This document shows, in pieces, positions 3,874-23,547 of a DNA stretch of 36,789 nt (positions within the stretch are counted from its first letter, which is position 1; every line of letters begins with the position of its first letter). The position numbers and the translations under genes are program-made. Where the stretch lies: assembly GCA_041575955.1 (NCBI GenBank), contig JBFGLX010000003.1, forward strand, positions 1-36,789, in the 5' to 3' direction. Under the pieces are notes generated by a model. The model had not been told where the DNA came from and ran no database searches. It was given only the letters and a program-made list of their open reading frames with translations. The DNA comes from Thermoanaerobaculia bacterium. GTDB taxonomy: Bacteria > Acidobacteriota > Thermoanaerobaculia > Multivoradales > JAHEKO01.

Positions 3874-5741
3874 CTCAGGAGCTCTCGCAGCCGCGTCAGG
3901 TAGCCGCGGGAGTCGTCCAGCCCGCCCGGGCGGCTGCGGGCGAGCCAGAGCTCGGGGAGCTCGTCGATGATCGACTGGAGGGGCTCGGCCAGCGCGCGCC
4001 GGGCGGCCACCGGCACCTGGGTCAGGCGGCGCCCGCGTCCCGCCTGCAGCCGCTCGAGGCCGAGCCGGCAGGCGAGCTCCAGGAGGCGCGCGGTCCAGTC
4101 GAGCTCGCGGGCGACCAGGGCGCGAGCGGCCCCCCGAGGGAGGTCGATGCTCGCCAGCCGATCGAGCGCCCGCTCGAGCCCGCGCCGGCCGAGGCCGTCG
4201 AAGCGCCGGTGCTCGAGCGTCTCCTCGGCCCGGATCAGGAGCTGGAAGAGGACGGTCGTGTTGCGGAGCTCGACCCCGGTCTCGGCGGGCGCCTCGCCGA
4301 GCGCCATCAGCGCCGAGACCAGCGAGGCGTCGGCGAGCTCGGGCACGTGCGTTTGCAGCAGCTCGCGCAGCGGCAGCGCCGCCGGATCGGCCGCTCGGGA
4401 AGCGTTCCAGGAGAACGCGGCGCCCGCGACGATGCCCGGATAGCTGATCGGCAGCGGCTGGAGATGGCCGAAATCGCCCCAGTCGGTGACCAGGTAGCCG
4501 GCCGCCTGCTGGGCGCGACCGGCGACGGCGGCGCGCGCCAGGTTGACCACGGCGTTGTCGACCCGGCCGCCGAGGCTCGACCAGCTGCTGGTTCCCGGAC
4601 AGACGTAGTAGTCGAGGCCGGCGGCGGCGAACGCGCGCGCCTCGTCGTCGAACGGATGGTCGGCCTCGTAGCCCCAGTCGAGCGCGATGACGTCGCCGGG
4701 CAGCCTGCCGATCAGGTCCGGCCGCCGCAGGATGATGTCGCCCCAGAACTGCATGCGCCGTCCCCAGGCGCCGACCAGGGCGTGGATCTCGCGCAGGAAG
4801 TCGAGGTAGACCTCTTCCTTGCCGCGCTCGGCGCAGGCCTGGGCCGAGCGGCCGGTGCCGAGGTCGAAGGTCTCGTCGAGACCGACGTTGACCAGGCGGC
4901 TGGTGAAGTTCGGCAAGAGCTGCTCGAACAGATCGTCGAGCAGGCGCAGGCTGCCCGGGTCGAGGGGGCAGAGGCTGAACGGCTCCCGGTGGCGGCCGAA
5001 CGGATGGCGGACGCCGTCGGGACGCTCGGCCAGGGGGCGGTAGGCGTCGTGGGACAGCCAGCGGTGGAAGTGTCCGAAGCTGTTCTGGTTGGGCACCAGC
5101 TCGACGAAGCGCCGGCGGCAGAAGGCGTCGAGCTCGCGCACGTCGCGCTCGGTGAGCGGGCTCGACGCCTGCCAGACCGCGTCGTGCCCGCGGTAGGCGA
5201 AGGTGTGCTCGGTGTAGAGCTGCAGCTGGTTGAACTTCAGGCCGGCCAGCAGCTCTACCAGCTCGAACAGGGTGTCGAGGCGCGGCACCCGGTTGCGGCT
5301 GACGTCGAGCATGAAGCCGCGGGCGGCGAAGTCCGGCGCGTCGACGATCTCGACGCACGGCAGGCGCCAGCGGTCGCCCCGTCGCCGGCCGGTGAGCCGC
5401 AGCCATTGGCTGAGGGTGGCGCCGCCGTAGGCCAGCCCGGCGGCGTCGGCCGCCACCAGGTCGACGCCGCTCGGCTCCACGCTCAGCCGGTAGCCCTGGG
5501 GCCCGAGCGGCTCGTCGACGTCGAGGGCCAGCCGCAGCTGCGCCGCGCCGCGACCGCTCGAAGAGCCGCCCATCGAGGGCTCGAGGCCCTGGGCGCGCAG
5601 GCTGCGCAGCAGCCCGTCGGCGGCGCCGGCCGCGGCGGCCGAGACGGCGATCCGGCAGCGCCGGTCGAGCCCGAGCTCGCCGGCCCGCGGACGGACCTCT
5701 CGGGGCCGGGGAAGCAGGAGCTCGACCGCCGGAGTGGCCAC
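3870..5741 (-). CDS. Glycoside hydrolase family 20 (beta-N-acetylhexosaminidase-like), 623 aa
   Basis: RGFMLDVSR, NQLQLYTEH, ELVPNQNSFGH and the catalytic DE pair in NVGLDET. No obvious signal peptide. Confidence 0.9.
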   Translation of the reverse strand: MATPAVELLLPRPREVRPRAGELGLDRRCRIAVSAAAAGAADGLLRSLRAQGLEPSMGGSSSGRGAAQLRLALDVDEPLGPQGYRLSVEPSGVDLVAADAAGLAYGGATLSQWLRLTGRRRGDRWRLPCVEIVDAPDFAARGFMLDVSRNRVPRLDTLFELVELLAGLKFNQLQLYTEHTFAYRGHDAVWQASSPLTERDVRELDAFCRRRFVELVPNQNSFGHFHRWLSHDAYRPLAERPDGVRHPFGRHREPFSLCPLDPGSLRLLDDLFEQLLPNFTSRLVNVGLDETFDLGTGRSAQACAERGKEEVYLDFLREIHALVGAWGRRMQFWGDIILRRPDLIGRLPGDVIALDWGYEADHPFDDEARAFAAAGLDYYVCPGTSSWSSLGGRVDNAVVNLARAAVAGRAQQAAGYLVTDWGDFGHLQPLPISYPGIVAGAAFSWNASRAADPAALPLRELLQTHVPELADASLVSALMALGEAPAETGVELRNTTVLFQLLIRAEETLEHRRFDGLGRRGLERALDRLASIDLPRGAARALVARELDWTARLLELACRLGLERLQAGRGRRLTQVPVAARRALAEPLQSIIDELPELWLARSRPGGLDDSRGYLTRLRELLS

Positions 5742-5745
5742 TCGC

Positions 5746-7068
5746 CTAACCGATGCGGACGGCCAGCACCGGCGGCAGGTTCTGGGCCGCGGTCATCCAG
5801 CTGGCGCCGCCGTCGGCCGAGGCGTAGACCGCGCCCTGCTCGGTGCCGAAGCAGAGCCCGAGCGGCCGGCGGCCGTCATGCGCGAACGCCTGGCGCAGGA
5901 CCGTGGCGTAGGCATCGGTGGGCAGTCCGTCGGTCAGCGGGCGCCAGCTCCGGCCCCGGTCGCGGGTCTCGTAGACCGCGATGCGCCCCTCGGGCGTCAC
6001 CCGATCGACGTCGGCCACCAGCGGAATGACGTAGGCGCGGTCGGGATCGTGCGGATCGGCGACCAGGGGAAAGCCGAAGTCGGACGGCAGGCCGTCGCCG
6101 ATGTCGATCCAGCTCAGACCGCCGTCGTCGGAGCGGTAGACGCCGCCGTGAAACTGCAGGTAGAAGGTCTGCGGCTCGACCGGCGAGCGCTCCATGTGGT
6201 GGACGCACAGCTGCAGGGTGTTGGCGCGCACCTCCTCGGGCAGGTAGCGCGCGACCAGCCCGTCGACGCCCCGCGACCAGCTGGCGCCGCCGTCCTCGGT
6301 GTGCCAGACGCCGACCGCCGACATCGCCACCGCTAGCCGCGCGGGATCGCCCGGCCAGGGGCAGATGGAGTGCAGGCAGAGGCCACCGGCGCCGCCCTGC
6401 CAGTCGGGGCGCGTCGGTTGGTCCCAGAGGGAGCGGTTGAGGGTCCAGCTCTCGCCGTTGTCGGTGCTCCGGAACAGGGCCGCCGGCGCTACCCCGGCCC
6501 AGATCTCGCCCTCGGCCTCGCCCGGCTGGATCACCCAGATGCGGCCGACCGCGGCGTCGGTGTCCGGTGGAAAGACCGGGCCCTGCGCCTGCTGCCACTC
6601 GTCGGCGAGATCGTCGGTCCAGCACAGTCGGGGGCCGAACTGGCCGTGGGTCACGGCGGCGAAGTAGCGCCCGCTCCGCCGGTCGCGAGTCACGATCTCG
6701 GCCGCCTCGCCCGCGAAGTGCCGCTGGTCGACCTCGAAACCGCCGCCCGGGTCGCCGCGCAGGACGAATAGGCCCTTACGGGTCGCGATCAGGATCTCGG
6801 TCGCCGGCGCGCCACCGGAGATCGCGTGCACGATGTAGAGCTCGTCACCCTCGCCGAGCGGCTGCTCGAGGCCGGCGCTGCGATCGTTGACGAACAGGCT
6901 GACGTGCTCGCGCAGCCGGCCGCGCTCGTCGAGCACCCAGCCGCGCAGCCGGGGCTGCTCGGCCTCGAGCGCCTTGATCGCGTCGCCGGCGGTGGCTCCC
7001 CGGACGCCGATCCGGTCCGCGCCGTCGGTGTAGCGAAGCAGCGGCGAAGGCAGAACGACGGTGGGCAC
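5746..7068 (-). CDS. MoaD/ThiS ubiquitin-like domain fused to a BNR/Asp-box beta-propeller (sialidase/Ycf48-like), 440 aa
   Basis: Residues 1-86 look like a beta-grasp domain ending VHAISGG. Asp-box repeats follow: STDNGESW, TEDGGASW, SDDGGLSW, TRDRGRSW, SADGGASW. Confidence 0.88.
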   Translation of the reverse strand: MPTVVLPSPLLRYTDGADRIGVRGATAGDAIKALEAEQPRLRGWVLDERGRLREHVSLFVNDRSAGLEQPLGEGDELYIVHAISGGAPATEILIATRKGLFVLRGDPGGGFEVDQRHFAGEAAEIVTRDRRSGRYFAAVTHGQFGPRLCWTDDLADEWQQAQGPVFPPDTDAAVGRIWVIQPGEAEGEIWAGVAPAALFRSTDNGESWTLNRSLWDQPTRPDWQGGAGGLCLHSICPWPGDPARLAVAMSAVGVWHTEDGGASWSRGVDGLVARYLPEEVRANTLQLCVHHMERSPVEPQTFYLQFHGGVYRSDDGGLSWIDIGDGLPSDFGFPLVADPHDPDRAYVIPLVADVDRVTPEGRIAVYETRDRGRSWRPLTDGLPTDAYATVLRQAFAHDGRRPLGLCFGTEQGAVYASADGGASWMTAAQNLPPVLAVRIG

Positions 7069-7078
7069 GGCGACCGGC

Positions 7079-7115
7079 AGTCTAGCACGGCGCCAGACGG
7101 TTTCTGGGGTAGGCT
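7079..7115. promoter_or_regulatory. Putative divergent promoter pair
   Basis: Minus-strand extended -10 TGCTAGACT (7087-7079) lies 10 nt before GTG 7068. Plus-strand TAGGCT (7110-7115) lies upstream of a purine-rich RBS and ATG 7137. Confidence 0.45.
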
Positions 7116-7136
7116 AGCGACCTCTGGAAGGGGGCC

Positions 7137-8465
7137 ATGGCGGGCAAGAAGCTTGTTCTGATCGTCGACGACGAACCCGGCATCCTGACGACCCTGGCGG
7201 GCGTGCTGTCGGATGAAGGCTACGCGACCGTCTGCACCGGCAGCGGCGGCGAGGCGCTCGACCTCTACGGTCGCGATCGCCCCGACGTGGTGCTGCTCGA
7301 CGTCTGGCTTCCCGACCACGACGGGCTCGAAACCCTGCAGGCGCTGCGCGAGGCCGACCCGACCGCGGCGGTGATCATGATGTCGGGCCACGGCACCGCC
7401 TCGACCGCGGTCAAGGCGATCAAGATGGGCGCCTACGACTACGTCGAGAAGCCGCTGTCCTACAGCCGGACGGTGGAGGCGGTCGAGGGCGCCCTCGAGT
7501 ACCGCCGGTCGGTGGCGTCCGACCGTGAGCTCCTGACCTCGCTCGAGAAGACCAAGGACCGCCTCGAGACGCCTCCCGACCTGAGCGGACCGCCGATTTT
7601 CCGGCTGGTGGAGCGATCCTCGCTGCCGCAGAAGACCATCGCCCGCAGCACCGTCATCTACGGCCTGGGGCTGCACTCGGGGAGCCGCACCGGCATGGCC
7701 ATCCAGCCGCTGCCCGCCGACACCGGCATCCATTTCATGATCCTGCCGACCAACACCCACGTTCCGGGACACGTCGCCGCGGTCGCGGAGACCGACTACG
7801 CGACCACCCTGGCCAACGACGGCGAGAGCATCAAGACGGTCGAGCACTTCCTGTCGGCGGTGCACGCGCTCGGCATCACCAACCTGCTGATCAAGGTGCA
7901 CGGCGAGATCCCGGTGCTCGACGGCTCGGCGCTCGAGTTCTGCAAGACGCTCGAAGAGGTGGGGATCGACGTACAGCCCGAGCGGCGCCGCGAGATCGTC
8001 ATCGACCGGGTCTACGAAGTGGTCGGCGAGGGCGAGAAGCGACTCACCCTGGAGCCCGACGACGGTTTCGCGATCTCGTATCTGCTGCGCTATCCGCCGC
8101 CGATCGGGGAGCAGCGCTACGAGTTCCGGCTGTCGAGCTTCTCGGCCTACAAGGAGCAGATCGCGCCGGCACGGACCTTCGGCTTCATGCGCGACCTGAA
8201 GATGATGTCGGAGCTCGGCCTGGGCTCGGGCGGCCGGCTCGACAACTGCATCCTGGTCGGCGAGGACAACGTGATCAACACGGCGCTCCGGTTCCCCGAC
8301 GAGTTCGTGCGCCACAAGATCCTCGACATCATCGGCGACCTCTACCTGCTCGGCTTCCCGATTCGCGGCAAGGTGACGGCCCGGTTCACCGGCCACCGCG
8401 ACAACATCAGGATCCTGCGGACGGTGCTGGAGGAGAACGTGACCCCCGCCCCCGCGGGCTCCTAG
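7137..8465 (+). CDS. lpxC: Receiver (REC) domain-LpxC fusion (UDP-3-O-acyl-GlcNAc deacetylase), 442 aa
   Basis: REC motifs: IVDDE, LLDVW (phospho-Asp), MSGHG, VEKP. LpxC starts near residue 165: QKTI..GLGLHSG, TVEHFLSA, EIPVLDGSA, APARTFGF, FPDEFVRHKILDIIGDL, TGH. Confidence 0.93.
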   Translation: MAGKKLVLIVDDEPGILTTLAGVLSDEGYATVCTGSGGEALDLYGRDRPDVVLLDVWLPDHDGLETLQALREADPTAAVIMMSGHGTASTAVKAIKMGAYDYVEKPLSYSRTVEAVEGALEYRRSVASDRELLTSLEKTKDRLETPPDLSGPPIFRLVERSSLPQKTIARSTVIYGLGLHSGSRTGMAIQPLPADTGIHFMILPTNTHVPGHVAAVAETDYATTLANDGESIKTVEHFLSAVHALGITNLLIKVHGEIPVLDGSALEFCKTLEEVGIDVQPERRREIVIDRVYEVVGEGEKRLTLEPDDGFAISYLLRYPPPIGEQRYEFRLSSFSAYKEQIAPARTFGFMRDLKMMSELGLGSGGRLDNCILVGEDNVINTALRFPDEFVRHKILDIIGDLYLLGFPIRGKVTARFTGHRDNIRILRTVLEENVTPAPAGS

Positions 8466-8523
8466 CCGGGCTGGGCGAGTCCGGCCGGACTGGCCGGAAT
8501 GACGGCTCGAGGCGCCGAAATTC

Positions 8524-8548
8524 CGGCGACCGGCCCGCCGCTTTTTTT
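8524..8548 (+). terminator. Possible weak intrinsic terminator after REC-lpxC
   Basis: CGGCG-(7 nt)-CGCCG stem followed by C and a run of 7 T. Confidence 0.4.
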
Positions 8549-8606
8549 CCGCGCCGCCGGTTTTTACGGGTGCCGCCGCCTCGACTGGGAGCTCGGGCCT
8601 GGGAGT

Positions 8607-8632
8607 TTGCATAGACGTATCGCCATATGCAA
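8607..8632. promoter_or_regulatory. Palindromic putative operator TTGCATA-N12-TATGCAA
   Basis: Perfect 7-bp AT-rich inverted repeat in GC-rich DNA at the 5' end of the EAL gene. Confidence 0.4.
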
Positions 8633-10198
8633 CCGGCCTGGAGATTGCTTCTCGGAGAGATGGAGATCCTCGGCATGGCCATCGGCGTAGAACACGAAGC
8701 AGAAGACAACCTGGCGTCGGTCGTCGACCTCGCGGAGCCCGTGACCGTGGGCGATCCGCTGGCGGACGCGGTCGATCGGGTCATCGACCAGTGCCTGCTG
8801 AGCATGGTTTTCCAGCCGATTGTCGACCTCAAGCAAGGCACGATCTTCGCCTACGAGGCGCTCAGCCGCAGCCGCGTGCCGGAGTTCGAGGATCCGCCGG
8901 CCCTGGTCGAGGCCGCGACGGCGGCCGGCAGGGTCGGCGAGCTCGGGCGGCTCCAGCGAGCGCTGGCTTCCAAAAATTGTCCAGACTGGCCGATTTTTGT
9001 CAACATCTCGCCCAACGAGTTCGACGAGGGCTTTCTGGTTCGGCCGGACGACGCGATCTTCAGGCACCGCAAGCCGGTCTACGTCGAGATCACCGAGTCC
9101 GTCCCGCTGGTCTTCTTCGAGCAGTGCCACAGCGTCCTGGCCGAGCTCCGGCGCAAGGGCGCCCGGCTGGCGATCGACGACCTTGGGGCCGGCTATTCGA
9201 ATCTCAAGTACATCGCCGACCTGGCGCCCGATATCGTGAAGCTGGATCGGGAGCTGGTGGCCGGCTGTGCGTTGCAGGGCAGCCAGTACGAGCTGCTCTG
9301 TTCCATCGCCAGCCTCTGTCATCAGGTCGAGGCGCGGGTGGTCGCCGAAGGAGTGGAGACGGCGGAGGAGCTCGAGGCGGTGAGCGCTGCCGGCATCGAC
9401 CTCGGCCAGGGCTTCTTCCTCGGCCGGCCCAAGATCTCCCCGGCGGAGCTGAGCTGGCCCGCCTCGGACCTGATCACCAGCGCGGATTTCAAGGTGCGGC
9501 GCGCGACCCATGCGGCCGACCGCTGCGATCCGTCGCCGGAGCGCGCCGATCGGCGCCTCGACGAGCTCGAGGAGATCCGCTCGCTGCTGGAGAAGAGCGT
9601 CCGCAAGGCGCGGGGCGAGGTCGTCCGACTGCGCAAGGCGGTCAGCGAGGCCGAGAGCCGGAGCGAGCGCGCCCAGGCGCGGCTCGAACAGCTCGAGAGC
9701 TCGCTCGCCGAGTCCGAGACCAACCGCCGCCGGCTGGCACGCCTGTACGAGGCGGCCACCCTCAAGAAGAAGGCGCAGCCGGCGCCGCCATCGGCGCCCC
9801 GCCGCGGCTTCGACCTCAAGAAGGTCGTCGCCCAGGGGCTGATCTGGGCGGCGGGCCTGGCGGCCGGTCTGATGCTCTACAAGTTCGATCCGCGCACCGA
9901 TAGGCTCGCGCCCCCCGCCGAGGCCGGGACCGCGCCGGTGGCGGCCGAGGCCGAGGACGAGCGGACGCGCTCCGAGATTCGATCTCTGGTGCTCGACTGG
10001 GCGCGCTCGCGATCGGGACAGCCGGGCGAGGCGGTGCGCGACCTGGAGATCGACCTGCTCTCCGAGTCCGCGGCGCGCGCGAGCTTCGTGCTGACCGACG
10101 CCACCGGCGACCGCCCCGGGCAGCGGCGCCAGAGTCTCGATCTGGTGCGCGACGCCGGCGGTTGGCGGGTCGACCGGCAGTCCCTCCCCGGCGCCTAG
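8627..10198 (+). CDS. EAL-domain c-di-GMP phosphodiesterase with coiled coil, TM helix and C-terminal NTF2-like domain (start may be 8660 or 8675)
   Basis: FQPIVDL, YEALSR, VNISP, EITES, AIDDLGAGYSN, VKLDR, AEGVET and QGFFLGRP. Then an E/R-rich heptad region and hydrophobic VVAQGLIWAAGLAAGLML. Confidence 0.88.
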   Translation: MQPAWRLLLGEMEILGMAIGVEHEAEDNLASVVDLAEPVTVGDPLADAVDRVIDQCLLSMVFQPIVDLKQGTIFAYEALSRSRVPEFEDPPALVEAATAAGRVGELGRLQRALASKNCPDWPIFVNISPNEFDEGFLVRPDDAIFRHRKPVYVEITESVPLVFFEQCHSVLAELRRKGARLAIDDLGAGYSNLKYIADLAPDIVKLDRELVAGCALQGSQYELLCSIASLCHQVEARVVAEGVETAEELEAVSAAGIDLGQGFFLGRPKISPAELSWPASDLITSADFKVRRATHAADRCDPSPERADRRLDELEEIRSLLEKSVRKARGEVVRLRKAVSEAESRSERAQARLEQLESSLAESETNRRRLARLYEAATLKKKAQPAPPSAPRRGFDLKKVVAQGLIWAAGLAAGLMLYKFDPRTDRLAPPAEAGTAPVAAEAEDERTRSEIRSLVLDWARSRSGQPGEAVRDLEIDLLSESAARASFVLTDATGDRPGQRRQSLDLVRDAGGWRVDRQSLPGA

Positions 10199-10477: not shown

Positions 10478-12301
10478 ATGAGCCCGCTGCGACGAGTCTG
10501 CTCGCTGTTCGCCCTGCTGGCGACCCTGCCGCTGGCGGCGGAGGAGCTGCCGGAGTGGGGGCGCAAGGTGGATCCCTGGGTCCTCGACCGGCTGGCGAGC
10601 CGATCGGAAGCCGAGTTCCTCGTTCTCCTGGAGACCCAGGCGGACCTGAGCGGCGCCGACCGGCTCGCGACCAAGGCGGCCAAGGGTCGCTACGTCTACG
10701 AGCGGCTCAAGGCCACCGCCGAGCGGTCGCAGCCGGCGCTCCTCGAGCGCCTGCGCCGGGACGGCCATGAGCACCGCCCCTTCTGGGTCGCCAACATGGT
10801 CTGGGTGCGCGGGGGCGCCGCCCTGGTCGAGGAGCTCGCCTCCCGCGACGACGTCGCCCACATCTACGCCAACCCCCGGGTCGAGCTCGACCTGCCGCGG
10901 CGTGACGTCCTCGCCAAGGGATCGGGCCGCGCCATCGAGCCGAGTCTCGCGCACGTCGGGGCGCCCAAGGTCTTCTGGGCGCGCGGCTTCACCGGCCAGG
11001 GCGTGGTTATCGGCGGCCAGGACACCGGTTACAGCTGGAGCCACCCCGCCTTGAGGTCGAAGTACCGGGGCGCCGCCGGTGGCGTCGATCACAACTACAA
11101 CTGGCACGACGCGATCCACGCGAGCATCGGTCCGTGCGGAGCGGATTCCCGCGAGCCGTGCGACGACAACAACCACGGTACCCACACGATGGGCACCATG
11201 GTCGGCGACGACGGCGAGGGCAATCGCATCGGCATGGCGCCCGGAGCGACCTGGATCGGCTGCCGCAACATGGACGGCGGGGTCGGCACTCCGGCCAGCT
11301 ACAGCGAGTGCTTCCAGTGGTTCATCGCCCCCACCGACCTCGCCGACCGGAACCCGGATCCCGACGCCGCCCCGGACGTCATCAACAACTCCTGGTCGTG
11401 CCCGCCCTCGGAAGGCTGCACCGACCCGAACGTGCTGCGCCGGGTGGTCGAGAACACGCGCAAGGCGGGCATCCTGGTCGTGGTCTCGGCCGGCAACGAG
11501 GGTCCCGACTGCGAGACGGTCGCCTCGCCGGCGGCGATCTACGACGCCTCGCTGACCGTCGGTGCGAGCAACAACTTCGACGGCATCACCGGTTTTTCGA
11601 GCCGCGGCCCGGTGTCGGTGGACGGCAGCGGCCGGCTCAAGCCGGACGTGGTGGCGCCCGGCTTCCAGATTCGCTCGAGCGTCCTCGCCGACGGCTACGA
11701 CCGGTTCAACGGCACCAGCATGGCCGGTCCGCACGTGGCCGGCCTGGCGGCGCTGGTGATCTCGGCGGCGGGCTGCCTGCGCGGCAACGTCGACGCGATC
11801 GAGCGCCACATCCTGGAGACTGCTCAGCCCGTGCTGGCGGATCAGTCTTGCGGCGGGTCGGGCGACGACGTTCCCAACGCGGTCTACGGTCACGGCGCGA
11901 TCCGGGCGGCGTTGCCAGCCTGTGGCGACGGCATTTCCGGCGCGGCCACCGGCATGGCCTTGAGGAAGCTCGTCTGTCGGAACCGGAGCTCCAGGCCGCG
12001 CCAGAAGGTCACCGCCCGTCTGGGCGGCGCCGACGCGTGGGACTGCGGCGCCCAGGGGCTGAGCGCCGGTGGCGGCGATCGCGTCAAGGTCCAGCTGACC
12101 GCGACCGCTAGCGGCGGCGGCGAGGTCGGGGGCTCGATCGAGGGCATCCCGAAAGCCAAGGTCGTGTGCAAGAACCAGTCGGCCGGCGGCAAGACGACGA
12201 TCAGGCCGGGGGATGGCGAGCCGTGGGACTGTCGCGGCGCCGGACTTGCCGTCTCCGACGGCGATGCGCTGAAGGTGACCATCAGCGGCAAAGCAGGGTA
12301 G
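10478..12301 (+). CDS. Secreted S8 subtilisin-like serine protease (bacillopeptidase F-like) with two C-terminal Cys-containing repeats, 607 aa
   Basis: Signal peptide (LFALLATLPLAA), triad motifs GQDTG / HGTHTMGT / GTSMAGPHVAG, oxyanion SAGN. Confidence 0.95.
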   Translation: MSPLRRVCSLFALLATLPLAAEELPEWGRKVDPWVLDRLASRSEAEFLVLLETQADLSGADRLATKAAKGRYVYERLKATAERSQPALLERLRRDGHEHRPFWVANMVWVRGGAALVEELASRDDVAHIYANPRVELDLPRRDVLAKGSGRAIEPSLAHVGAPKVFWARGFTGQGVVIGGQDTGYSWSHPALRSKYRGAAGGVDHNYNWHDAIHASIGPCGADSREPCDDNNHGTHTMGTMVGDDGEGNRIGMAPGATWIGCRNMDGGVGTPASYSECFQWFIAPTDLADRNPDPDAAPDVINNSWSCPPSEGCTDPNVLRRVVENTRKAGILVVVSAGNEGPDCETVASPAAIYDASLTVGASNNFDGITGFSSRGPVSVDGSGRLKPDVVAPGFQIRSSVLADGYDRFNGTSMAGPHVAGLAALVISAAGCLRGNVDAIERHILETAQPVLADQSCGGSGDDVPNAVYGHGAIRAALPACGDGISGAATGMALRKLVCRNRSSRPRQKVTARLGGADAWDCGAQGLSAGGGDRVKVQLTATASGGGEVGGSIEGIPKAKVVCKNQSAGGKTTIRPGDGEPWDCRGAGLAVSDGDALKVTISGKAG

Positions 12302-12310
12302 GGGAGAGGC

Positions 12311-14722
12311 TTGGAGACCAGCGGCACCGAGCGGAGCTCCCTCCAGTTCACCGGCGAGAGCATTCTGCGCGACTACCGGATCGCGTTCCAGAGCCGGGAG
12401 GCGAGCCTGCTCGGCCGGCGCGAGGTGCTGACCGGCAAGGCCAAGTTCGGCATCTTCGGCGACGGCAAGGAGGTCGCACAGGTGGCGATGGCGCGCTCGT
12501 TCCGCAAGGGCGACTTCCGCGCCGGCTACTACCGCGACCAGACGTTCATGTTCGCGCTCGGCCTGCTGACCGTCCAGGAGTTCTTCGCGCAGCTCTACGC
12601 CGACGCCAGCCTCGAGCGCGAGCCGGCGTCGGGCGGCCGCCAGATGACCGCCCACTTCGCCACCCGGCTGCTCGACCCCGATGGCGGCTGGCGCAGCCAG
12701 TTCGACCGCTACAACGTGGCTGCGGATCTCTCGCCAACCGGCTCGCAGATGCCGAAGCTGGTCGGCCTGGCCTACGCCTCGCGCATCTACCGCGAGCTCG
12801 AGGGGCTGGACGGCGCCGAGCGCTTCTCGCGCAACGGCGACGAGATCGCCTTCGGCACGATCGGCGACGCGAGCTGCGCCGAGGGGCTCTTCTGGGAGTC
12901 GGTCAACGCCGCCGGCGTCTTGGGCGCGCCCATGCTGCTGTCGATCTGGGACGACGGCTTCGGGATCTCGGTGCCGACCGAGCGCCAGGTCACGAAAGGC
13001 GACATCTCGCAGCTGGTGCGCGGCTTCCAGCGCTCGCCCGGCGACAAGCGCGGCTACGACATCTACACCGCCAGGGGCTGGGACTATCCCGGCCTCTGCG
13101 AGACCTATCTGACCGCCTCCGAGATCGTGCGCATCGAGCACGTGCCGGCGATCATCCACGTCCAGGAGGTGACCCAGCCCCAGGGCCACTCGACGTCGGG
13201 CAGTCACGAGCGCTACAAGACCGCCGACCGGCTGGCCTGGGAGGCCGAGCACGACTGCATCGCGCGCATGCGCGGCTGGATGGAGCGCCAGGGCATCGCC
13301 ACCGCCGAGGAGCTCGACGCCGCCGAGGCCGAGGATCGCGAGCTGGTGCGGCAGATGCAGCGCGCGGCGTGGCACGCCTTCCGCGAGGAGCTCGATGCCG
13401 ACCGCCAGCGGCTGACGGCGATACTCGACGAGGTCGGGCGGGAGTCGGCCGCGCACGGCGCGATCGGCGAGCTCCGGCAGCGGCTCGACCGGACGCCGAA
13501 CCCGCTCCGGCGCGACCTTCAGGGAACGGCCGCCGAGGCCCTGATCGCGGTGCGCGACGAGTCGCATCCGGCCAGGGAGCGCCTGCGGAGCTGGCATCGC
13601 GAGATGCTCGAGCGCCAGGCCGAGCGCTACGGCACGCACCTCTACAGCGAGACCGAGGGCTCGGCGCTGACCGTGCCGGCGGTGCCGCCGGTGATCACCG
13701 CCGACTCACCGGAGGTTCGCGGCTTCGAGGTGCTCAACGCCTGCTTCGACCGGGCGCTGGCGCGCACTCCCAACCTGGTGGCGTTCGGCGAGGACCTCGG
13801 GCGCCTGGGCGACGTCAACCAGGGCTTCGCCGGCCTGCAGGAGAAGTACGGCGAGCTGCGGGTGGCGGATGCCGGGATTCGCGAGGCGACGATCATCGGC
13901 CAGGCGATCGGCATGGCGCTGCGCGGCCTGCGTCCGCTGGCCGAGATCCAGTATCTCGACTACCTGCTCTACTGCCTGCAGATCCTCTCGGACGACCTGG
14001 CGACCCTGCGCTGGCGGACGCTCGGCGGGCAGAAGGCTCCGGTCATCATCCGCACGCGTGGCCATCGCCTCGAAGGCGTCTGGCACGCGGGCTCGAACCT
14101 GGCCGGCCTGATCCATCTGCTGCGCGGCATCTACATCTGCGTGCCGCGGGACATGACCCGGGCTGCCGGCTTCTACAACACGCTGCTGCGGTCCGACGAC
14201 GCCGGCCTGGTGATCGAGGTGCTGAACGGCTACCGGGTGAAGGAGAAGCTGCCGGACAACATCGGCGAGCTGACCGTGCCGCTGGGCGTTGTCGAGGTCC
14301 TGAGGCCGGGGCGAGACGTCACCGTCGTCACCTATGGCGCCCTCTGCCGGATCGCGCTGGAGGCGGCCGAGCTGCTGGCCGGAGTGGGCATCGACGCCGA
14401 GGTGATCGACGTCCAGACCCTGCTGCCGTTCGATCTCGGCAGCCGGATCCTGGAGTCGATCAAGAAGACCGGCGCGGTGCTGTTCGTCGACGAGGACGTG
14501 CCGGGAGGCACCACCGCCTACATGGCCCAGCAGGTGATCGAAGCGCAGGGGGCATTCGCGTGGCTGGACGCGGCGCCTCGGACGCTCTCCGCGCAGGAGC
14601 ACCGTCCCGCCTACGGCTCCGACGGCGACTACTCGTCGAAACCGAACCGTGATTCGATCTTCCAGACCCTCTACGAGATGGCGCGCGAGCGCGAGCCGAA
14701 GCGCTTCCCGCAGCTGTTCTAG
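12311..14722 (+). CDS. Fused 2-oxoacid dehydrogenase E1 alpha+beta (ThDP-dependent), 803 aa
   Basis: YYRD, ThDP-binding variant GDASCAEG...WDD, QGHSTS, FGEDLG, IREATIIG, EIQYLDY, VIDVQTLLPFD. TTG start after GGGGAGAGG. Confidence 0.92.
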   Translation: METSGTERSSLQFTGESILRDYRIAFQSREASLLGRREVLTGKAKFGIFGDGKEVAQVAMARSFRKGDFRAGYYRDQTFMFALGLLTVQEFFAQLYADASLEREPASGGRQMTAHFATRLLDPDGGWRSQFDRYNVAADLSPTGSQMPKLVGLAYASRIYRELEGLDGAERFSRNGDEIAFGTIGDASCAEGLFWESVNAAGVLGAPMLLSIWDDGFGISVPTERQVTKGDISQLVRGFQRSPGDKRGYDIYTARGWDYPGLCETYLTASEIVRIEHVPAIIHVQEVTQPQGHSTSGSHERYKTADRLAWEAEHDCIARMRGWMERQGIATAEELDAAEAEDRELVRQMQRAAWHAFREELDADRQRLTAILDEVGRESAAHGAIGELRQRLDRTPNPLRRDLQGTAAEALIAVRDESHPARERLRSWHREMLERQAERYGTHLYSETEGSALTVPAVPPVITADSPEVRGFEVLNACFDRALARTPNLVAFGEDLGRLGDVNQGFAGLQEKYGELRVADAGIREATIIGQAIGMALRGLRPLAEIQYLDYLLYCLQILSDDLATLRWRTLGGQKAPVIIRTRGHRLEGVWHAGSNLAGLIHLLRGIYICVPRDMTRAAGFYNTLLRSDDAGLVIEVLNGYRVKEKLPDNIGELTVPLGVVEVLRPGRDVTVVTYGALCRIALEAAELLAGVGIDAEVIDVQTLLPFDLGSRILESIKKTGAVLFVDEDVPGGTTAYMAQQVIEAQGAFAWLDAAPRTLSAQEHRPAYGSDGDYSSKPNRDSIFQTLYEMAREREPKRFPQLF

Positions 14723-17711: not shown

Positions 17712-18412
17712 CCGGACGGCGACGGTTCGCGGCCGAGCGCGGCGGCGCCTATCTGCTGGCGCTCACCGCCCTTCTGGCCCTGACCGGCCTGGGAATCGCG
17801 CTGTCGGGGATCGCTCTGATCGAGCGCCGGTTGGGCTCGGCCGACGAGCGCCGGCAACAGGCGCTCAACGCGGCCGACAGCGGGCTGGCGCTCGCCACCG
17901 CCCGCCTGCTCGCCGGTGGCGGCAGCGATCCGCTGCAGGTCGTCTTCGGCGCCGGCCGCACGGCGGCGATGGCTCGCGCCAGCCGGGTGCGGGTCGAGCC
18001 GCCGCTCCTGGTTGCCGCCGCTCCGTGCGCGTCCTGCGATCCGGCGGCCGGCGGCGTCGGCAGGGTGAGCTACGCGCTGGCCGCCCTCGGCGAGCAGATC
18101 GTCTGGCCCGGGCACCTTTCGCCGGACGACCCGCGCCCGACCGCCCGGGCGTCCGTGGAGGCGATCGTGACCCTCCAGCCCTGGCCGATTCCGGGCTCGC
18201 CGGAGCCGCCCGGGGCCGCCGCTGGCGGCCCGGCGTGCGATCCGGAGGCCCGCGCGAGAGCGCTCGAGCGGCTGCGCGGCGAGCTGCATCCGCCCGGGTG
18301 CAGATTCGGACCGGCGTCGCTCGCGGTGCGGGCGCTCGACGCCGAGAGCGGCTCGAGCTGCGGGGTAACGGTGCCCGTCTGCGTGCTCCTGAGCGGCTGG
18401 CGAGAGCGCTAG
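17708..18412 (+). CDS. PilX-like minor pilin
   Basis: ERG|GAYLLALTALLALTGLGIAL lacks E+5, as in PilX. QALNAADSGL. ATGA overlap with the pilW-like gene. Confidence 0.7.
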   Translation: MTGRRRFAAERGGAYLLALTALLALTGLGIALSGIALIERRLGSADERRQQALNAADSGLALATARLLAGGGSDPLQVVFGAGRTAAMARASRVRVEPPLLVAAAPCASCDPAAGGVGRVSYALAALGEQIVWPGHLSPDDPRPTARASVEAIVTLQPWPIPGSPEPPGAAAGGPACDPEARARALERLRGELHPPGCRFGPASLAVRALDAESGSSCGVTVPVCVLLSGWRER

Positions 18413-18427
18413 ATCCTGACCGGCGGC

Positions 18428-18433
18428 TATACT
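18428..18433 (+). promoter_or_regulatory. -10 box TATACT, probable leaderless promoter of the CHAD-parA pair
   Basis: TATACT lies 8 nt before ATG 18442, with no SD. Confidence 0.55.
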
Positions 18434-18441
18434 GGCGCGCC

Positions 18442-20025
18442 ATGGCCGAGCGCGGGATCGCCTACTGTGCCGGCGACGAGTCCGAGCTCGAGCGGATCGT
18501 GCGCGCTCTGGGTGAGCGCTTCGCGATCGAGCAGGAGCGTACCCTCAGGCGGCGGCTCTACTACGACACCTTCGACTGGCGTCTGTGGCGGAGGCGAAGC
18601 CGGCTGTGGACCGAGCCCGAGCCGGCTGGCGCCCGGCTGGTGTGGCAGCGCGAGCCGCCGCGGCGGCGGCTCGGACTGGCGTTGGCGGCCGAGCGCGGCG
18701 GCGAGATCGGCTTCGCGGCCGATCTGCCCGCCGGGCGGCTTCGCGACCGCCTCACCCGGGTGCTCGGCGTGCGCCGGCTGCTGCCGGTGGTCGAGGTGCG
18801 CGCCGAGGGCCGGCTGGTCCGGATCCTGGACGGCCGGCAGAAGACCGTCGTCCGGGTGTTCGCGGAACTGCCGGCCGCCCGCGCGCCCGGCGCCCCCGGC
18901 CCGTGGACGCGGCTGGCGCCGCTCGCCGTCGTCCAGCCGGTCAAGGGCTATCCGGGGGCCTGCCGCGAGGTGACCGGCTTCCTCGGCGGCGAGCTCGAGC
19001 TCGCGGAGCGGCAGGCGGACGAGCTCGAGGCCGGCTCGGTTCTCGGCGGGTTGGGTCCGGCCGGTGGCTACACCGGCAAGCTGAGCGTGCCCCTCGACCG
19101 CGACGCCGACGCCGACGATGCGCTGCGCGCCGTGCTGCGCGAGCTGCTCGAGACGATCGAGAGGAACGAGGCCGGGACCATCGCCAGGCTCGACACCGAG
19201 TTCCTGCACGACTTCCGGGTGGCCGTCCGGCGGACGCGGTCGGCGCTGAGCCAGACCCGGAAGGTGTGGGCGCCCGAGCTCATCCGCCCGTTCCGCCGCG
19301 AGCTCTCCTGGCTGGGCGGGATCACCGGTCCGATGCGCGATCTGGACGTCTACCTGCTGGCGCTGCCTGGGTACGCCGCGGCCCTGCCGGCGCCGGTGCG
19401 TGCCGACCTCGAGCCCTTCCGACGGCTGCTCGAGTCGCACGGCGAAGCCGAGCAGGCGAAGCTGGCGTCCGCGCTCGGCGGGTCGCGCTACCGCCGGTTG
19501 ATCGACTCGTGGCGGAGCTTCCTCGCCGCCCGCCCGGCCGAGGAGAGCCGCCCCCCCGCGGCCCGCCAGCCGATCGTGCGCCTCGCCCACCGGATCATCG
19601 GCAAGGCCCACCGCCGCATCCTGAAGCGCGGGCGCGCGATCGACGACGACACGCCTCCGGAGGCGCTTCACCGCCTGCGCATCGACGGCAAGAAGCTCCG
19701 CTATCTGCTCGAGTTCTTCCGCGCGCTCTATCCACCGGCGGCGCTCGGGCCGCCGATCCGAGCGCTCAAGCAGCTCCAGGACAACCTCGGCGCCTACAAC
19801 GACTACGGCGTCCAGCTGCGCATGCTGGAGAGCTGCGGCGGCCGGCTGGCCACCGGCGACGCCCCGGGCGTCGCGGCCGTGATGGCGCTGGGCCGGCTGG
19901 CGGCCGAGCTCGAGCGGCGGGAAGCGCGCGAGCGCGCCCGCTTCTCGGAGCGGTTCGCCGAGTTCAGCCGCGGCGAGACCAGCGAGCGTTTCCGGGCGCT
20001 GCTCGCGGCGGGAGAGACGCCGTGA
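18442..20025 (+). CDS. CHAD-domain polyphosphate-binding protein with degenerate N-terminal CYTH-like domain, 527 aa
   Basis: YYDTFDWRL (CYTH-like). CHAD motifs EFLHDFRVAVRRTRS, GPMRDLDV, LHRLRIDGKKLRYLLEFF, LKQLQDNLGAYND. Confidence 0.92.
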   Translation: MAERGIAYCAGDESELERIVRALGERFAIEQERTLRRRLYYDTFDWRLWRRRSRLWTEPEPAGARLVWQREPPRRRLGLALAAERGGEIGFAADLPAGRLRDRLTRVLGVRRLLPVVEVRAEGRLVRILDGRQKTVVRVFAELPAARAPGAPGPWTRLAPLAVVQPVKGYPGACREVTGFLGGELELAERQADELEAGSVLGGLGPAGGYTGKLSVPLDRDADADDALRAVLRELLETIERNEAGTIARLDTEFLHDFRVAVRRTRSALSQTRKVWAPELIRPFRRELSWLGGITGPMRDLDVYLLALPGYAAALPAPVRADLEPFRRLLESHGEAEQAKLASALGGSRYRRLIDSWRSFLAARPAEESRPPAARQPIVRLAHRIIGKAHRRILKRGRAIDDDTPPEALHRLRIDGKKLRYLLEFFRALYPPAALGPPIRALKQLQDNLGAYNDYGVQLRMLESCGGRLATGDAPGVAAVMALGRLAAELERREARERARFSERFAEFSRGETSERFRALLAAGETP

Positions 20026-20796: not shown

Positions 20797-22941
20797 TCAC
20801 TCCTGGGGGTGCCAGGAGCCGCGGTGGTGGAGCCGGTGGTGCTGCGAGTCGACGCGCTCGTCATCCGGTCCGGGTCGCACCCGCTGGTAGACACCGTCGG
20901 TGTCCAGTACCCGAGCCTGCACGTTGTCGCGCAGGTGCAAGAAGAGGATGTCGTCGCGCAGCGCGCACCGGAGCTTCGGATCGAGGACCGGGAAGAGAAG
21001 CTCGACCCGGCCGTCCAGGTTGCGGGGCATGAGGTCGGCGCTGCCGAGCAGGATCTCCTCCTCGCCGCCGTTGCGGAAGTAGTAGATGCGCGAGTGCTCC
21101 AGGAAGCGGCCGACGATCGAAGTGACGCGGATGTTGTCGCTGACGCCGGCGACGCCGGGTCGCAGGCAGCAGATGCCGCGTACCTGGAGGTCGATGCGCA
21201 CCCCGGCCCGGGAAGCTTCGTAGAGCTTGCTGATGCAGCTTTTGTCGACCAGCGAGTTCATCTTGAACGCCAGGTAGCCGCCGCCGCTGTCGCGCTGCAC
21301 GGCGATCTCGCGGTCGATGCGCTCGAGCAGCTGGTCGCGCATCGAGTGCGGCGAGACCAGCAGCTTGCGGTAGCTGTTCTTCCGCGAGTAGCCGGTCAGG
21401 GAGTTGAACAGGTCGGAGACGTCCGCCGCCAGGTCGGAGTCGGCGGTGAAGTAGCCGAGATCGGTGTAGACGCGCGAGGTGACCGGGTTGTAGTTGCCGG
21501 TTCCGAGGTGCACGTAGCTCTGGATGCCGTGGGCCTCGCGCCTGACGATCAGGCACATCTTGCAGTGCACTTTCAGGCCCACCAGGCCGTAGACCACGTG
21601 CACCCCCGCCTCTTCCAGCGCCCGTGCCCAGACGATGTTGTTCTCCTCGTCGAAGCGCGCCTTGAGCTCGACCAGAACGGCGACCTGCTTGCCCCGCTCG
21701 CGCGCCTCGCGCAGCGCGCGCACCACCGGCGAGTTGGGTCCGGTGCGATAGAGCGTCTGCTTGATGGCGATCACGTTGGGGTCGCGGCTGGCGCACTGGA
21801 TGAGGTCGACCACCGGCCCGAAGCTGTCGAACGGGTGGTAGAGCAGCGCGTCGTGCTCGCGCAGCACCGAGAACAGGCTCTCGTCCTGGGTGAGCTGGGG
21901 CGGCGTCAGCGGCAGGAACGGCGGGTCCTTGAGCTCCGGCCGGTCGATCCTGGTCAGCTCCATCAGGTCGGCGAGTCCGAGCGGGCCCTCCTCCTCGTAC
22001 ACCTGATAGGGCGAGATGCGCAGGTTGCGGCTCAGGATCGAGCGGATGCGCTCGGGCATCCGGGCGTCGACCTCGAGCCGGATCGCGGAGCCGAAATGGC
22101 GCTGCGCGACCACGTCCTGCATGGTCGTCATCAGGTCGGCGGCTTCGTCCTCTTCGATCTCGAGATCGGCGTCCCGGGTCACCCGGAAGGGGTGAGCGGC
22201 GAACACCTCGAGCCCCGGGAAGAGCAGGTCGAGGTTGGCCGCGACCACTTCGTCCAACCAGACGAAGTTGCTCCCGACGGGCTCGACCAGGCCGAGGTGC
22301 TCGTAGCCGCCGGCGCGGTCTTCGCTGGGAATCCGCAGCAGGCGCTCGAGCGTGTTCGGCACCTTGAGCCGGGCGAAGCGCTCGCCGTCACGGTCATCGT
22401 GGATCTCGACCGCCAGGTTGATGCTCAGGTTGGAGATGTGCGGAAACGGGTGCCCCGGATCGAACGCCAGCGGCGTCAGCACCGGGAAGATCGCGCGCTT
22501 GAAGTGACGGCGCAGGAGCTTGCGCTGCTTGCGCTTCAGGTCGCCGTAGCTGAGGACGCGAATCGCCCGCTTGGCCAGCTTGGGCTGCAAGTCGTCGCGC
22601 CAGCAGCGGACGCTCTGCTCGAGCATCGGCATCAGCTTCTCGCGAATCGCGGCGAGCTGCTCGGCCGGGGTCATGCCGTCCGGGGGGGCCTCGAGAGCGC
22701 CCGCCTCCAGCTGCCGTCGCAGGCCGGAGACCCGGATCATGAAGAATTCGTCGAGATTGCTGTTGAAGATCGACAGGAACTTGACCCGTTCGAGCAACGG
22801 ATGGTCCGGGTCGAGCGCTTCCTCGAGCACGCGGGCGTTGAAATCCAGCCAGCTCAACTCGCGGTTGGTGTAGTACCGCTTGTCGGCGAGATCGGGGGCG
22901 GCGTCGGTAAGCTGGGTGGGGCGGTCTTCGAGAGTAGCCAG
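20797..22941 (-). CDS. ppk1: Polyphosphate kinase 1 (probable CTG start), 714 aa
   Basis: YTNRELSWLDFNARVL, NLDEFFMIRV, HPFPHISN, KQTLYRT, ELKARFDE, GLKVHCK, GTGNYN, RFLEHSR, SADLMPRNL. The ORF-track start at 22857 cuts the conserved N-terminal motif. Confidence 0.96.
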   Translation of the reverse strand: MATLEDRPTQLTDAAPDLADKRYYTNRELSWLDFNARVLEEALDPDHPLLERVKFLSIFNSNLDEFFMIRVSGLRRQLEAGALEAPPDGMTPAEQLAAIREKLMPMLEQSVRCWRDDLQPKLAKRAIRVLSYGDLKRKQRKLLRRHFKRAIFPVLTPLAFDPGHPFPHISNLSINLAVEIHDDRDGERFARLKVPNTLERLLRIPSEDRAGGYEHLGLVEPVGSNFVWLDEVVAANLDLLFPGLEVFAAHPFRVTRDADLEIEEDEAADLMTTMQDVVAQRHFGSAIRLEVDARMPERIRSILSRNLRISPYQVYEEEGPLGLADLMELTRIDRPELKDPPFLPLTPPQLTQDESLFSVLREHDALLYHPFDSFGPVVDLIQCASRDPNVIAIKQTLYRTGPNSPVVRALREARERGKQVAVLVELKARFDEENNIVWARALEEAGVHVVYGLVGLKVHCKMCLIVRREAHGIQSYVHLGTGNYNPVTSRVYTDLGYFTADSDLAADVSDLFNSLTGYSRKNSYRKLLVSPHSMRDQLLERIDREIAVQRDSGGGYLAFKMNSLVDKSCISKLYEASRAGVRIDLQVRGICCLRPGVAGVSDNIRVTSIVGRFLEHSRIYYFRNGGEEEILLGSADLMPRNLDGRVELLFPVLDPKLRCALRDDILFLHLRDNVQARVLDTDGVYQRVRPGPDDERVDSQHHRLHHRGSWHPQE

Positions 22942-23518: not shown

Positions 23519-23547
23519 CCTGGCCCCCTGCTAGGCTGTTCCCCCAG

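Follow-up and report, generated by a model that had tools for sequence, protein, structure and literature searches.

We have found, in a 36,789-nucleotide (nt) stretch of DNA from a Thermoanaerobaculia bacterium (contig JBFGLX010000003.1 of assembly GCA_041575955.1; hereafter the window), a gene that fuses the receiver (REC) domain of a two-component response regulator to LpxC, the deacetylase at the committed step in making lipid A. From the comparison of this genome (G000) with its relatives, we consider that the fusion may have replaced an ancestral sigma-54/NtrX transcriptional circuit before an lpxC-DUF4390-ntrY-ntrX operon, and that an NtrY-like kinase would now phosphorylate residue D55 of the receiver and switch LpxC, probably on. 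We give this reading as a whole a probability of about 0.6. The phosphodonor would be an NtrY-like membrane kinase encoded on another contig (C40) of G000, unlinked to the fusion, and a DUF4390/PlrP-like periplasmic partner would probably modulate that kinase.

The original prediction, made from the letters of the window, had described a single open reading frame (ORF) of 442 amino acids (aa) joining a receiver to a complete LpxC, and every motif that it named was recovered with Pfam, NCBIfam and alignment. The gene starts with ATG, is open over 442 codons, and has a GC content by codon position (0.66/0.43/0.94) like that of its neighbours. The receiver model PF00072 is matched over positions 1-110 of 111 (E 2.2e-28; 99.1 bits, cutoff 30.2), and the residues D11-D12 (LIVDDE), D55 (LLDVW), S83 (MSGH), Y102 and K105-P106 (EKP) are present. 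Its best receiver-type NCBIfam family is NtrX (NF051870), matched at 109 bits in the receiver part only, where the whole-protein cutoff is 600, and the nearest solved receivers belong to the NtrC family or NtrX (1zit, 4d6x, 5m7n, 3dzd). Pfam found neither the Sigma54 AAA+ domain (GAFTGA) nor HTH_8 in the window protein. It is no NtrX/NtrC-type sigma-54 activator; only its receiver is of that type.

The LpxC half matches PF03331 over model positions 1-267 of 268 (E 1.8e-82; 277 bits, cutoff 27) and passes the lpxC equivalog TIGR00325 (243 bits, cutoff 187); the latter match stops at model position 274 of 297, and the protein ends 11 residues past the LpxC domain. The residues E236-H237 (TVEH), T347-F348, H393-K394-D397 (HKILD), D401 and H420 (TGH) are present, and an explicit alignment with P. 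aeruginosa LpxC (5u39) sets TVEH, HKILD..GD and TGH against their counterparts in that enzyme. On these positions we take H237, H393 and D397 to be the zinc ligands, and E236 and H420 to be catalytic. We rejected assignment to the LpxC-FabZ type, considering that NF009667 gave 190 bits (cutoff 465) in the LpxC part only.

An AlphaFold2 (AF2) model of the whole two-domain chain, built on 140 family members, showed a mean predicted local distance difference test (pLDDT) of 92.2 and a predicted template modelling score (pTM) of 0.91. By its pLDDT and by Foldseek, the LpxC part has the fold of solved LpxC chains (E down to 2e-33; template modelling score (TM) normalised to the target 0.84-0.94; root-mean-square deviation about 1.8-2.6 A for many), and no solved chain in the Foldseek search spanned both REC and LpxC (TM normalised to the query at most 0.59). 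The linker, expected at about 45 aa, measures 48 aa (residues 117-164). In the model, helix alpha5 of the receiver continues as far as residue 128; residues 130-138 form another helix, and from there a Pro-rich coil enters LpxC at about residue 158-165, with block pLDDT values of 80-96. The coordinates are collected in Table 1.

Table 1. Features of the REC-LpxC gene and its downstream flank (window positions)
Feature	Position	Strand	Basis
REC-linker-LpxC gene, complete, 442 aa + stop	7137..8465	+	ORF list, Pfam, NCBIfam
REC domain, NtrC/NtrX type, residues 7-116	7155..7484	+	PF00072
Codon of D55, predicted phospho-acceptor, LLDVW motif	7299..7301	+	motif position; conservation
Linker, residues 117-164, 48 aa, poorly conserved	7485..7628	+	AF2 secondary structure; identity
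LpxC (UDP-3-O-acyl-GlcNAc deacetylase) domain, residues 165-431	7629..8429	+	PF03331, TIGR00325, Foldseek
Terminator-like hairpin + T run, 59 nt past stop codon	8524..8550	+	consensus scan

Conservation was compared over 140 short forms, which share the REC-linker-LpxC layout of the window protein, and 15 long forms with an AAA+ region between the two domains. On the receiver side of the short forms, D12, S83, K105 and P106 are invariant, D55 is found in 139, Y/F102 in 138 and D11 in 137, the other three having E. On the LpxC side, E236, H237, F348, H393, K394, D397 and D401 are invariant, and T347 and H420 are found in 139 each. The long forms keep the metal and catalytic residues of LpxC in 15/15 and the phospho-site residues in at least 14/15, with D55 in 14/15. 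Mean identity to the window protein is 0.76 for REC, 0.75 for LpxC and 0.37 for the linker among 119 close relatives, and 0.39, 0.44 and 0.11, respectively, among 20 remote ones. Both domains are intact and constrained, and the linker is drifting. Judged by these residues, REC would be competent for phosphorylation in 139 of the 140 short forms.

These figures bear on the possibility that the receiver no longer signals and is a structural, dimerisation or localisation leftover on a constitutive LpxC. Receivers acting without phosphorylation exist, and D55 is replaced by N in the short form P0148 and by S in one long form. However, the five positions of the phospho-chemistry are kept in at least 137 of the 140 short forms, down to 32% identity, and REC is as conserved as LpxC while the AAA+ and HTH parts have repeatedly decayed or been deleted, as would be expected if the receiver matters. 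We consider a silent receiver very improbable.

The fusion is not confined to the window. Among 5.8 billion clustered proteins, all of the 120 best matches combine REC with LpxC (430-462 aa, 68-100% identity), several of them on contigs of 1-5 Mb. The best 150 matches among 1.84 billion representatives at 50% identity included 20 complete short-form clusters (down to 32% identity), 15 long and two intermediate ones. In the ESM Atlas, 17 clusters of at least 50 members, the largest with 500, carry both domains in 100% of members; on this count the architecture is not rare, and the original prediction is corrected on that point. Full-length matches were present in 33 of the 121 genomes of the window's class and in 23 of 301 genomes of its phylum. 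The named records of close relatives are Acidobacteriota metagenome-assembled genomes (MAGs) labelled Thermoanaerobaculia, Holophagales or Holophagae. Further full-length matches, at 37-48% identity, stand in records labelled Thermodesulfobacteriota, 'Deltaproteobacteria', Syntrophorhabdus, Desulfocapsaceae, Desulfopila sp. IMCC35006, Myxococcota, Oligoflexales and Nitrospirota, although a few of these labels look mis-binned. The domain-architecture search that had been proposed shows a fusion recurring across the class, the phylum and other phyla. The source databases call these proteins plain 'UDP-3-O-acyl-GlcNAc deacetylase'.

A search for sequencing runs listed 20 DNA runs from 8 studies and no RNA run, and reads of some of the DNA runs were compared with the gene. 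A 576-nt contig of run X1, which may be the source sample, spans positions 7332-7907, from REC through the linker into LpxC, with one difference. The reads of runs X5-X7, from a second study, matched at 90-95% likeness and in conserved parts only; hardly any of the linker region 7486-7647 was covered, and these runs gave no independent confirmation of this exact junction.

Several observations on individual proteins and loci are recorded here. The fused protein, compared with the fusions of G018, G162, G180 and G195, is 66-67% identical to that of genomes from another class of the phylum (f28), 63-67% to those of families f17/f20 and 57% to that of G018 from its own family; the NtrY-like kinases of f17/f20 are just 33-37% identical, and the standalone LpxCs about 40-47%. 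The fusion is either unusually constrained, or it has spread horizontally with displacement of the native lpxC and ntrX. In locus L091 (6457-7270), the LpxC part of the fused gene is split into two reading-frame pieces, possibly by a frameshift or a sequencing error, and in L080 (4416-4688), an extra partial LpxC fragment, 58% identical to residues 184-274, lies about 1 kb downstream of the fusion.

In G000 (3.68 Mb in 510 contigs, 78% complete), the fusion is the single LpxC match. It was suggested beforehand to check whether it is the genome's only lpxC, and a sole copy is what we found here and in most carriers: of 41 relatives, 39 have an LpxC match, and each of these has exactly one, many of them being more than 95% complete, and in G153, G155 and G156 from other phyla the fusion is likewise the only LpxC. 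G000 also has LpxA (two matches above cutoff) and LpxB. Almost certainly, by its sequence, the fusion is the functional sole LpxC of its genome, with a predicted deacetylase role. Fused and standalone lpxC occur together in G065, G083, G086, G101, G113, G117 and G128 of the class sample, and outside the class in Desulfopila and in one Nitrospirota MAG.

An artefact would mean that the gene is an assembly chimera or a pseudogene, or that its LpxC-like domain serves another substrate and the true lpxC is unassembled. The incomplete and fragmented state of G000, in which WaaA/KdtA was not found, fits such an explanation. Against it stand the recurrence of this architecture on independent contigs by the hundred, some of them chromosomes of 1-5 Mb, the single LpxC match in each of the 39 relatives with a match, and an open frame with all catalytic residues, an equivalog score above cutoff and the fold of solved LpxC. 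Considering the 120 matches with shared architecture and the 33 class genomes, we rejected a chimera or a pseudogene and found no sign of the singleton that the original prediction had allowed for; an artefact of any kind is hardly credible.

Unfused relatives showed the arrangement from which the fusion may have departed. On one strand, lpxC stands first and is followed by a DUF4390 gene, an NtrY-like kinase (HAMP-PAS-HisKA-HATPase_c, with a weak to clear NtrY_N) and an NtrX/NtrC-type regulator (REC, Sigma54_activat, AAA_lid, HTH_8). This cluster was present in 14 of the 16 unfused genomes whose kinase locus was fetched, and in 15 metagenome loci. In G051, the kinase locus has neither lpxC nor NtrX, and no LpxC was found in that genome. 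The NtrX of the operon retains Walker A, G[AS]FTGA and the Walker B DE in 21/21, and these motifs mark it as a real sigma-54 activator. As the sigma-54 -24/-12 motif, we searched the sense strand within 350 nt upstream for TGGCAC-N5-TTGC with at most two mismatches, GG and GC being fixed. It was found upstream of lpxC in 18/18 operon loci, mostly with one mismatch, where 0.08 would be expected per searched interval. Accordingly, since the motif is constant and the cluster holds a GAFTGA-bearing NtrX, lpxC appears to head a sigma-54-dependent operon with its own kinase and activator.

In fusion carriers, this operon has come apart and the kinase has stayed. At E <=1e-90, 111 of the 121 genomes of the class have an orthologous NtrY-like kinase, and the kinase locus was fetched in 38 fusion-carrying genomes. 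In 28 of these no LpxC other than the fusion was found; 25 of them belong to the window's class or stand near it, and the remaining three are G153, G155 and G156. In all 28, the kinase is full length and NtrX is missing beside it (0/28), as is lpxC, and DUF4390 was detected beside the kinase in most. Among the carriers that also have a standalone lpxC and/or have kept the operon, NtrX stands beside the kinase in 8/10 (G065, G086, G101, G113, G117, G057, G129 and the Desulfopila genome G152). The original prediction had recommended looking for a co-evolving NtrY-like kinase, and the candidate is this intact kinase without a neighbouring NtrX in 28 of 28 fused-only genomes. One of the operon-keeping carriers shows a further copy: in L040 of the fusion-carrying genome G057, the old operon position beside DUF4390, the histidine kinase and NtrX is held by an LpxC-like gene (7284-8036 on the minus strand) that has diverged strongly, with 28% identity and a terminal branch of 2.07; it is possibly a decaying or neofunctionalised copy.

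In G000, contig C40 reads smpB, DUF4390, NtrY-like kinase and SelB-type GTPase. The kinase (L020, 6315-8498) has the NtrY-type architecture (NtrY_N 27.9 bits, cutoff 23.2; HAMP, PAS, HisKA, HATPase_c), its DUF4390 neighbour (186 aa) scores 64.8 bits (cutoff 27), and no response regulator stands beside the kinase on C40. No histidine kinase was found in the window, as had been stated: none of the 15 ORFs scanned with Pfam has HisKA or HATPase, and three NtrY-type kinases, used as tblastn queries against all six frames of the window, returned nothing at E <=1e-3. A relocated NtrX was not found in four near-complete fused genomes, where the best NtrX-like matches reach 48-51% identity (the true orthologue of the unfused control, G031, reaches 63%) and group with a different paralogue (Shimodaira-Hasegawa-like approximate likelihood ratio test (SH-aLRT) 100). 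The sigma-54 motif was absent upstream of fused genes (0/15), including that of the window, and upstream of the orphaned DUF4390-kinase pair there were three weak matches in 27. The rpoN gene is present in G002, G022 and G040. As a separate observation, the SelB-type elongation factor lies directly downstream of the orphaned kinase in L020-L023 (in G000, C40 being L020, at 3956-5866), and another part of the selenocysteine machinery, SelA, is encoded in the window at 33196-34599 on the minus strand.

In five loci, the fusion follows the kinase immediately and so stands where NtrX would be. A short fusion of 430 aa begins 23 nt past the end of an NtrY-like kinase (NtrY_N 28.0 bits) in L092; the gap is 46 nt in L100, between another such kinase (30.1 bits) and a 734-aa protein made of REC, Sigma54_activat, AAA_lid and LpxC; and in the metagenome loci L157, L160 and L181 the kinase is directly upstream of a short fusion. 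These loci bear on the possibility that the receiver is phosphorylated, but by another histidine kinase or by acetyl phosphate, the loss of NtrX being an unrelated event of the lineage. The distance between fusion and NtrY-like kinase in G000 and most carriers would suit such a donor, as would the small number of independent contrasts and the exceptions described below, and G000 has at least eight further kinase-like matches besides the C40 kinase. On the other hand, the fusion directly follows the kinase in the five loci, the best family match of the receiver is NtrX, and a full-length kinase kept without a neighbouring regulator in every fused-only genome is hard to explain if it has no partner. 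We therefore regard another donor as improbable and keep the NtrY-like kinase as the likely one.

The architectures form a series, from long REC-AAA+-lid-LpxC proteins (650-736 aa) through REC-HTH_8-LpxC proteins (491-505 aa) to REC-linker-LpxC. A tree built from 117 LpxC domains gathers every fused form in a single clade (SH-aLRT 99), apart from the operon LpxCs of the same class, with 39 short, 15 long, two intermediate and seven N-extended members and two short 'standalone' representatives. The last two, P0159 and P0191 (roughly 290 aa), are either truncated gene calls or cases of secondary receiver loss. Long and short forms are interleaved in the tree, which implies repeated loss of AAA+. 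In the long forms, which have long branches, Walker A is kept in 13/15, and GAFTGA and the Walker B Glu are lost in 15/15; since both are lost throughout, these proteins are not transcription activators, and of the regulator just the receiver has stayed intact. We also considered whether the NtrX of the operon itself gave rise to the fused receiver. In the tree, the long-form REC-AAA modules do not fall within the clade of operon NtrX and its paralogue and have long branches, and the alpha1 'specificity' helix of REC resembles that of operon NtrX just moderately, leaving this derivation unsupported. Because the module is not nested among the operon NtrX proteins, we describe the donor regulator as NtrX/NtrC-type and not as demonstrably the operon's NtrX.

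Together, the conserved receiver, the sole copy, the orphaned kinase in 28/28 genomes and the five adjacent loci lend comparative support to the original prediction that a two-component signal acts directly on LpxC. We infer the phosphotransfer from the NtrY-like kinase, the effect on LpxC, its sign and its physical mechanism. That the receiver is phosphorylated and regulatory appears very probable, and that the NtrY-like kinase is the donor appears likely; for activation as the outcome, the balance tips just slightly in favour. The sign is taken from the putative ancestral circuit. Sigma-54 activators (bacterial enhancer-binding proteins) activate only and never repress, so the ancestral logic would have been that an active kinase gives more lpxC; since that logic is positive, phosphorylated REC would turn LpxC on.

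Regarding the physical mechanism, activation might come through relieved autoinhibition, as in CheB, or through a changed dimer state, on the model of the phosphorylation-driven dimerisation of PleD and WspR. The pTM of 0.91 for the whole chain, taken by itself, suggests that REC packs against LpxC in a defined way, and such packing would suit a CheB-like autoinhibition relieved by phosphorylation. When REC (1-140) and LpxC (158-442) were docked as separate chains, the scores were 0.01 and 0.01 (mark 0.32), a result that counts neither way. A dimer switch is equally possible, because the long alpha5-linker helix is reminiscent of receiver dimers of the NtrC1/DctD type.

Alternatively, phosphorylation of REC may set the lifetime of LpxC rather than its catalytic rate, through regulated proteolysis with exposure of a degron or an adaptor site, as an analogue of FtsH/LapB control in E. 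coli. This is the main competitor of direct control of the enzyme. LpxC is under proteolytic control in the best-studied species (FtsH/LapB/YejM, Lon), besides transcriptional control. A 2025 review of lipid A regulation, in the text accessible to us, deals with the same topic and has proteolysis and transcription among the modes of LpxC control (PMC12444477). All evidence on the kinase input fits stability control equally well. The C-terminal tail of the E. coli type is missing here, in line with the end of the TIGR00325 match at 274/297, so that proteolysis would need another handle. However, the sequence gives no hint of a protease or adaptor, and a conserved protease neighbour of the fusion is lacking: the S8 subtilase gene at 10478-12301 is found next to it in 0/35 relative loci compared. 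Also, the fixed REC packing suggested by the model is more in line with direct control. We consider control through stability unlikely, and keep the switching of LpxC activity by the phosphorylated receiver as the preferred reading.

Several results weigh against that reading. The evidence for it is comparative and drawn from sequence. The loss of NtrX is not strictly tied to a sole-copy fusion, because there are exceptions: G128 and G154 have both LpxC types yet a kinase without NtrX, and the unfused G058 has a kinase locus with neither lpxC nor NtrX. A tree of 55 kinases provided 4-5 independent contrasts, of which about three tie NtrX loss to the fusion and almost none are opposite; these are few events, and the sign test on this tree (median p 0.25) cannot reach significance because the independent pairs are too few. 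The kinase and the fusion are unlinked in G000 and in most carriers, and adjacency is uncommon: of the first 50 metagenome loci tabulated, 11 carry a fusion and extend at least 2.3 kb upstream of it, and a kinase adjoins the fusion in just 3 of these, as it does in just 2 of the 33 loci L074-L106. The position of the long-form REC-AAA module outside the NtrX clade and the moderate likeness of the alpha1 helix to that of operon NtrX count here as well. As G000 is 78% complete, a second lpxC or an NtrX is possibly unassembled, and rpoN was not found in this incomplete genome. Finally, the proposed sign is opposite to the alphaproteobacterial case, where loss of NtrYX raises lpxC. According to the accessible parts of two reports, the lpxC transcript and the amount of lipopolysaccharide (LPS) respond to NtrYX in R. 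sphaeroides and C. crescentus, and in R. sphaeroides lpxC is affected indirectly and negatively (PMC12444477, PMC7240162). As a precedent for a link between NtrYX and lpxC, the same observations speak for our reading.

With solved standalone LpxC (P. aeruginosa 5u39, A. aeolicus 1p42, E. coli 3p3g), the window protein shares the full-length domain at 34-38% identity and the conserved E-H, H-K-x-x-D, D and H. It differs from them in the added N-terminal receiver with its 48-aa linker and in lacking the C-terminal stretch of TIGR00325, and from the standalone LpxC of its own class in that its LpxC domain lies in the clade of fused forms. Response regulators with enzymatic outputs are known, such as the methylesterase CheB, the diguanylate cyclases PleD and WspR, and the HD-GYP protein RpfG. 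They share with the fusion the REC-linker-enzyme layout and a canonical phospho-acceptor; however, their outputs are signalling enzymes, and that of the fusion is an essential biosynthetic enzyme at a committed step. With NtrY/NtrX (PlrS/PlrR with PlrP), the fusion has in common the NtrX-type receiver and a candidate kinase of the NtrY type with a PlrP-like DUF4390 neighbour. The output of published NtrYX systems is transcription through the DNA-binding NtrX, whereas the fusion has lost the DNA-binding and AAA+ parts and carries its receiver and enzyme in one chain. The DUF4390 domain is that of PlrP, which, in the accessible part of the report, was proposed on genetic evidence as the periplasmic third component of NtrYX-family systems (PMC13001219).

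The LpxC-FabZ protein of Bacteroidota, Chlorobiota and Verrucomicrobiota joins LpxC at its C-terminus to an enzyme of fatty-acid metabolism and is a metabolic fusion, in contrast to the regulatory domain at the N-terminus and the lack of FabZ here. It is the only LpxC fusion that we found in print, in the accessible text of its description (PMC3087551). The original prediction knew of no characterised receiver-LpxC protein, and our full-text literature searches also returned no description of one; a mention in Galperin's response-regulator classifications (2006, 2010) may exist. In the accessible part of the 2025 review, the words 'fusion', 'fused' and 'receiver' are never used (PMC12444477). 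As far as we searched, the domain combination is visible in databases and apparently undescribed in print. The fusion would be a response regulator whose output, an essential biosynthetic enzyme, is new, and LpxC would at the same time be controlled in a new way.

The synthesis of lipid A and LPS is controlled at LpxC, which is also a major antibiotic target. If the preferred reading is correct, a receiver within LpxC would add a third, post-translational mode of control driven by a two-component sensor, in a testable system of one protein, one aspartate and one candidate kinase. Such a system could reveal the envelope signals that set LPS output in Acidobacteriota, Thermodesulfobacteriota, Myxococcota and others. 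The NtrY/DUF4390 (PlrS/PlrP) sensors, whose signal and outputs are still debated, would gain a single defined enzymatic output. In a broader sense, the sigma-54/NtrX circuit before lpxC may have been short-circuited by the receiver-enzyme fusion as a control mode of the outer membrane in several phyla, a generalisation for which we see even odds. The repeated decay from REC-AAA+-LpxC to REC-LpxC would then be a rare, stepwise record of a transcription factor becoming an allosteric domain of its former target, and would document the movement of a regulatory link from DNA to protein.

In the window, the fusion gene looks monocistronic. The terminator consensus scan gave two sites against 0.5 expected, which are pattern matches only, and a scan of 6900-8800 showed no sigma-70-type promoter. 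Just downstream, at 8627-10198 (+), lies a gene for a 523-aa EAL-domain protein of the cyclic di-GMP phosphodiesterase type, with a charged, Arg/Glu/Ala-rich C-terminal extension of roughly 250 aa. As a conserved functional partner it was rejected, being beside the fusion in 0/35 relative loci compared. Upstream lies a gene (5746-7068, minus strand) for a protein of 440 aa that has a ThiS/ubiquitin-like domain at its N-terminus and also BNR/sortilin-Vps10-type repeats; L005 and L075 have this gene upstream of their fusions too. A gene for an 803-aa fused E1 dehydrogenase/transketolase-type protein, at 12311-14722 (+), is separated from the fusion in the window by the EAL and S8 protease genes and recurs downstream of the fusion in L004/L073, L008, L016, L075 and L088.

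Farther from the fusion, a CHAD-domain protein is encoded at 18025-20025 (+) beside the polyphosphate kinase PPK1 at 20797-22857 (-). A 795-aa protein encoded at 26105-28492 (+) carries an N-terminal phospholipase catalytic domain like that of the type VI secretion system (T6SS) effector Tle1 (PF09994, E 8e-74), and no T6SS genes were noticed among the ORFs scanned in the window. The 986-aa ORF at 23053-26013 combines an ATP-cone with a phosphoglycerate-mutase-like metalloenzyme domain, and its start may be over-called.

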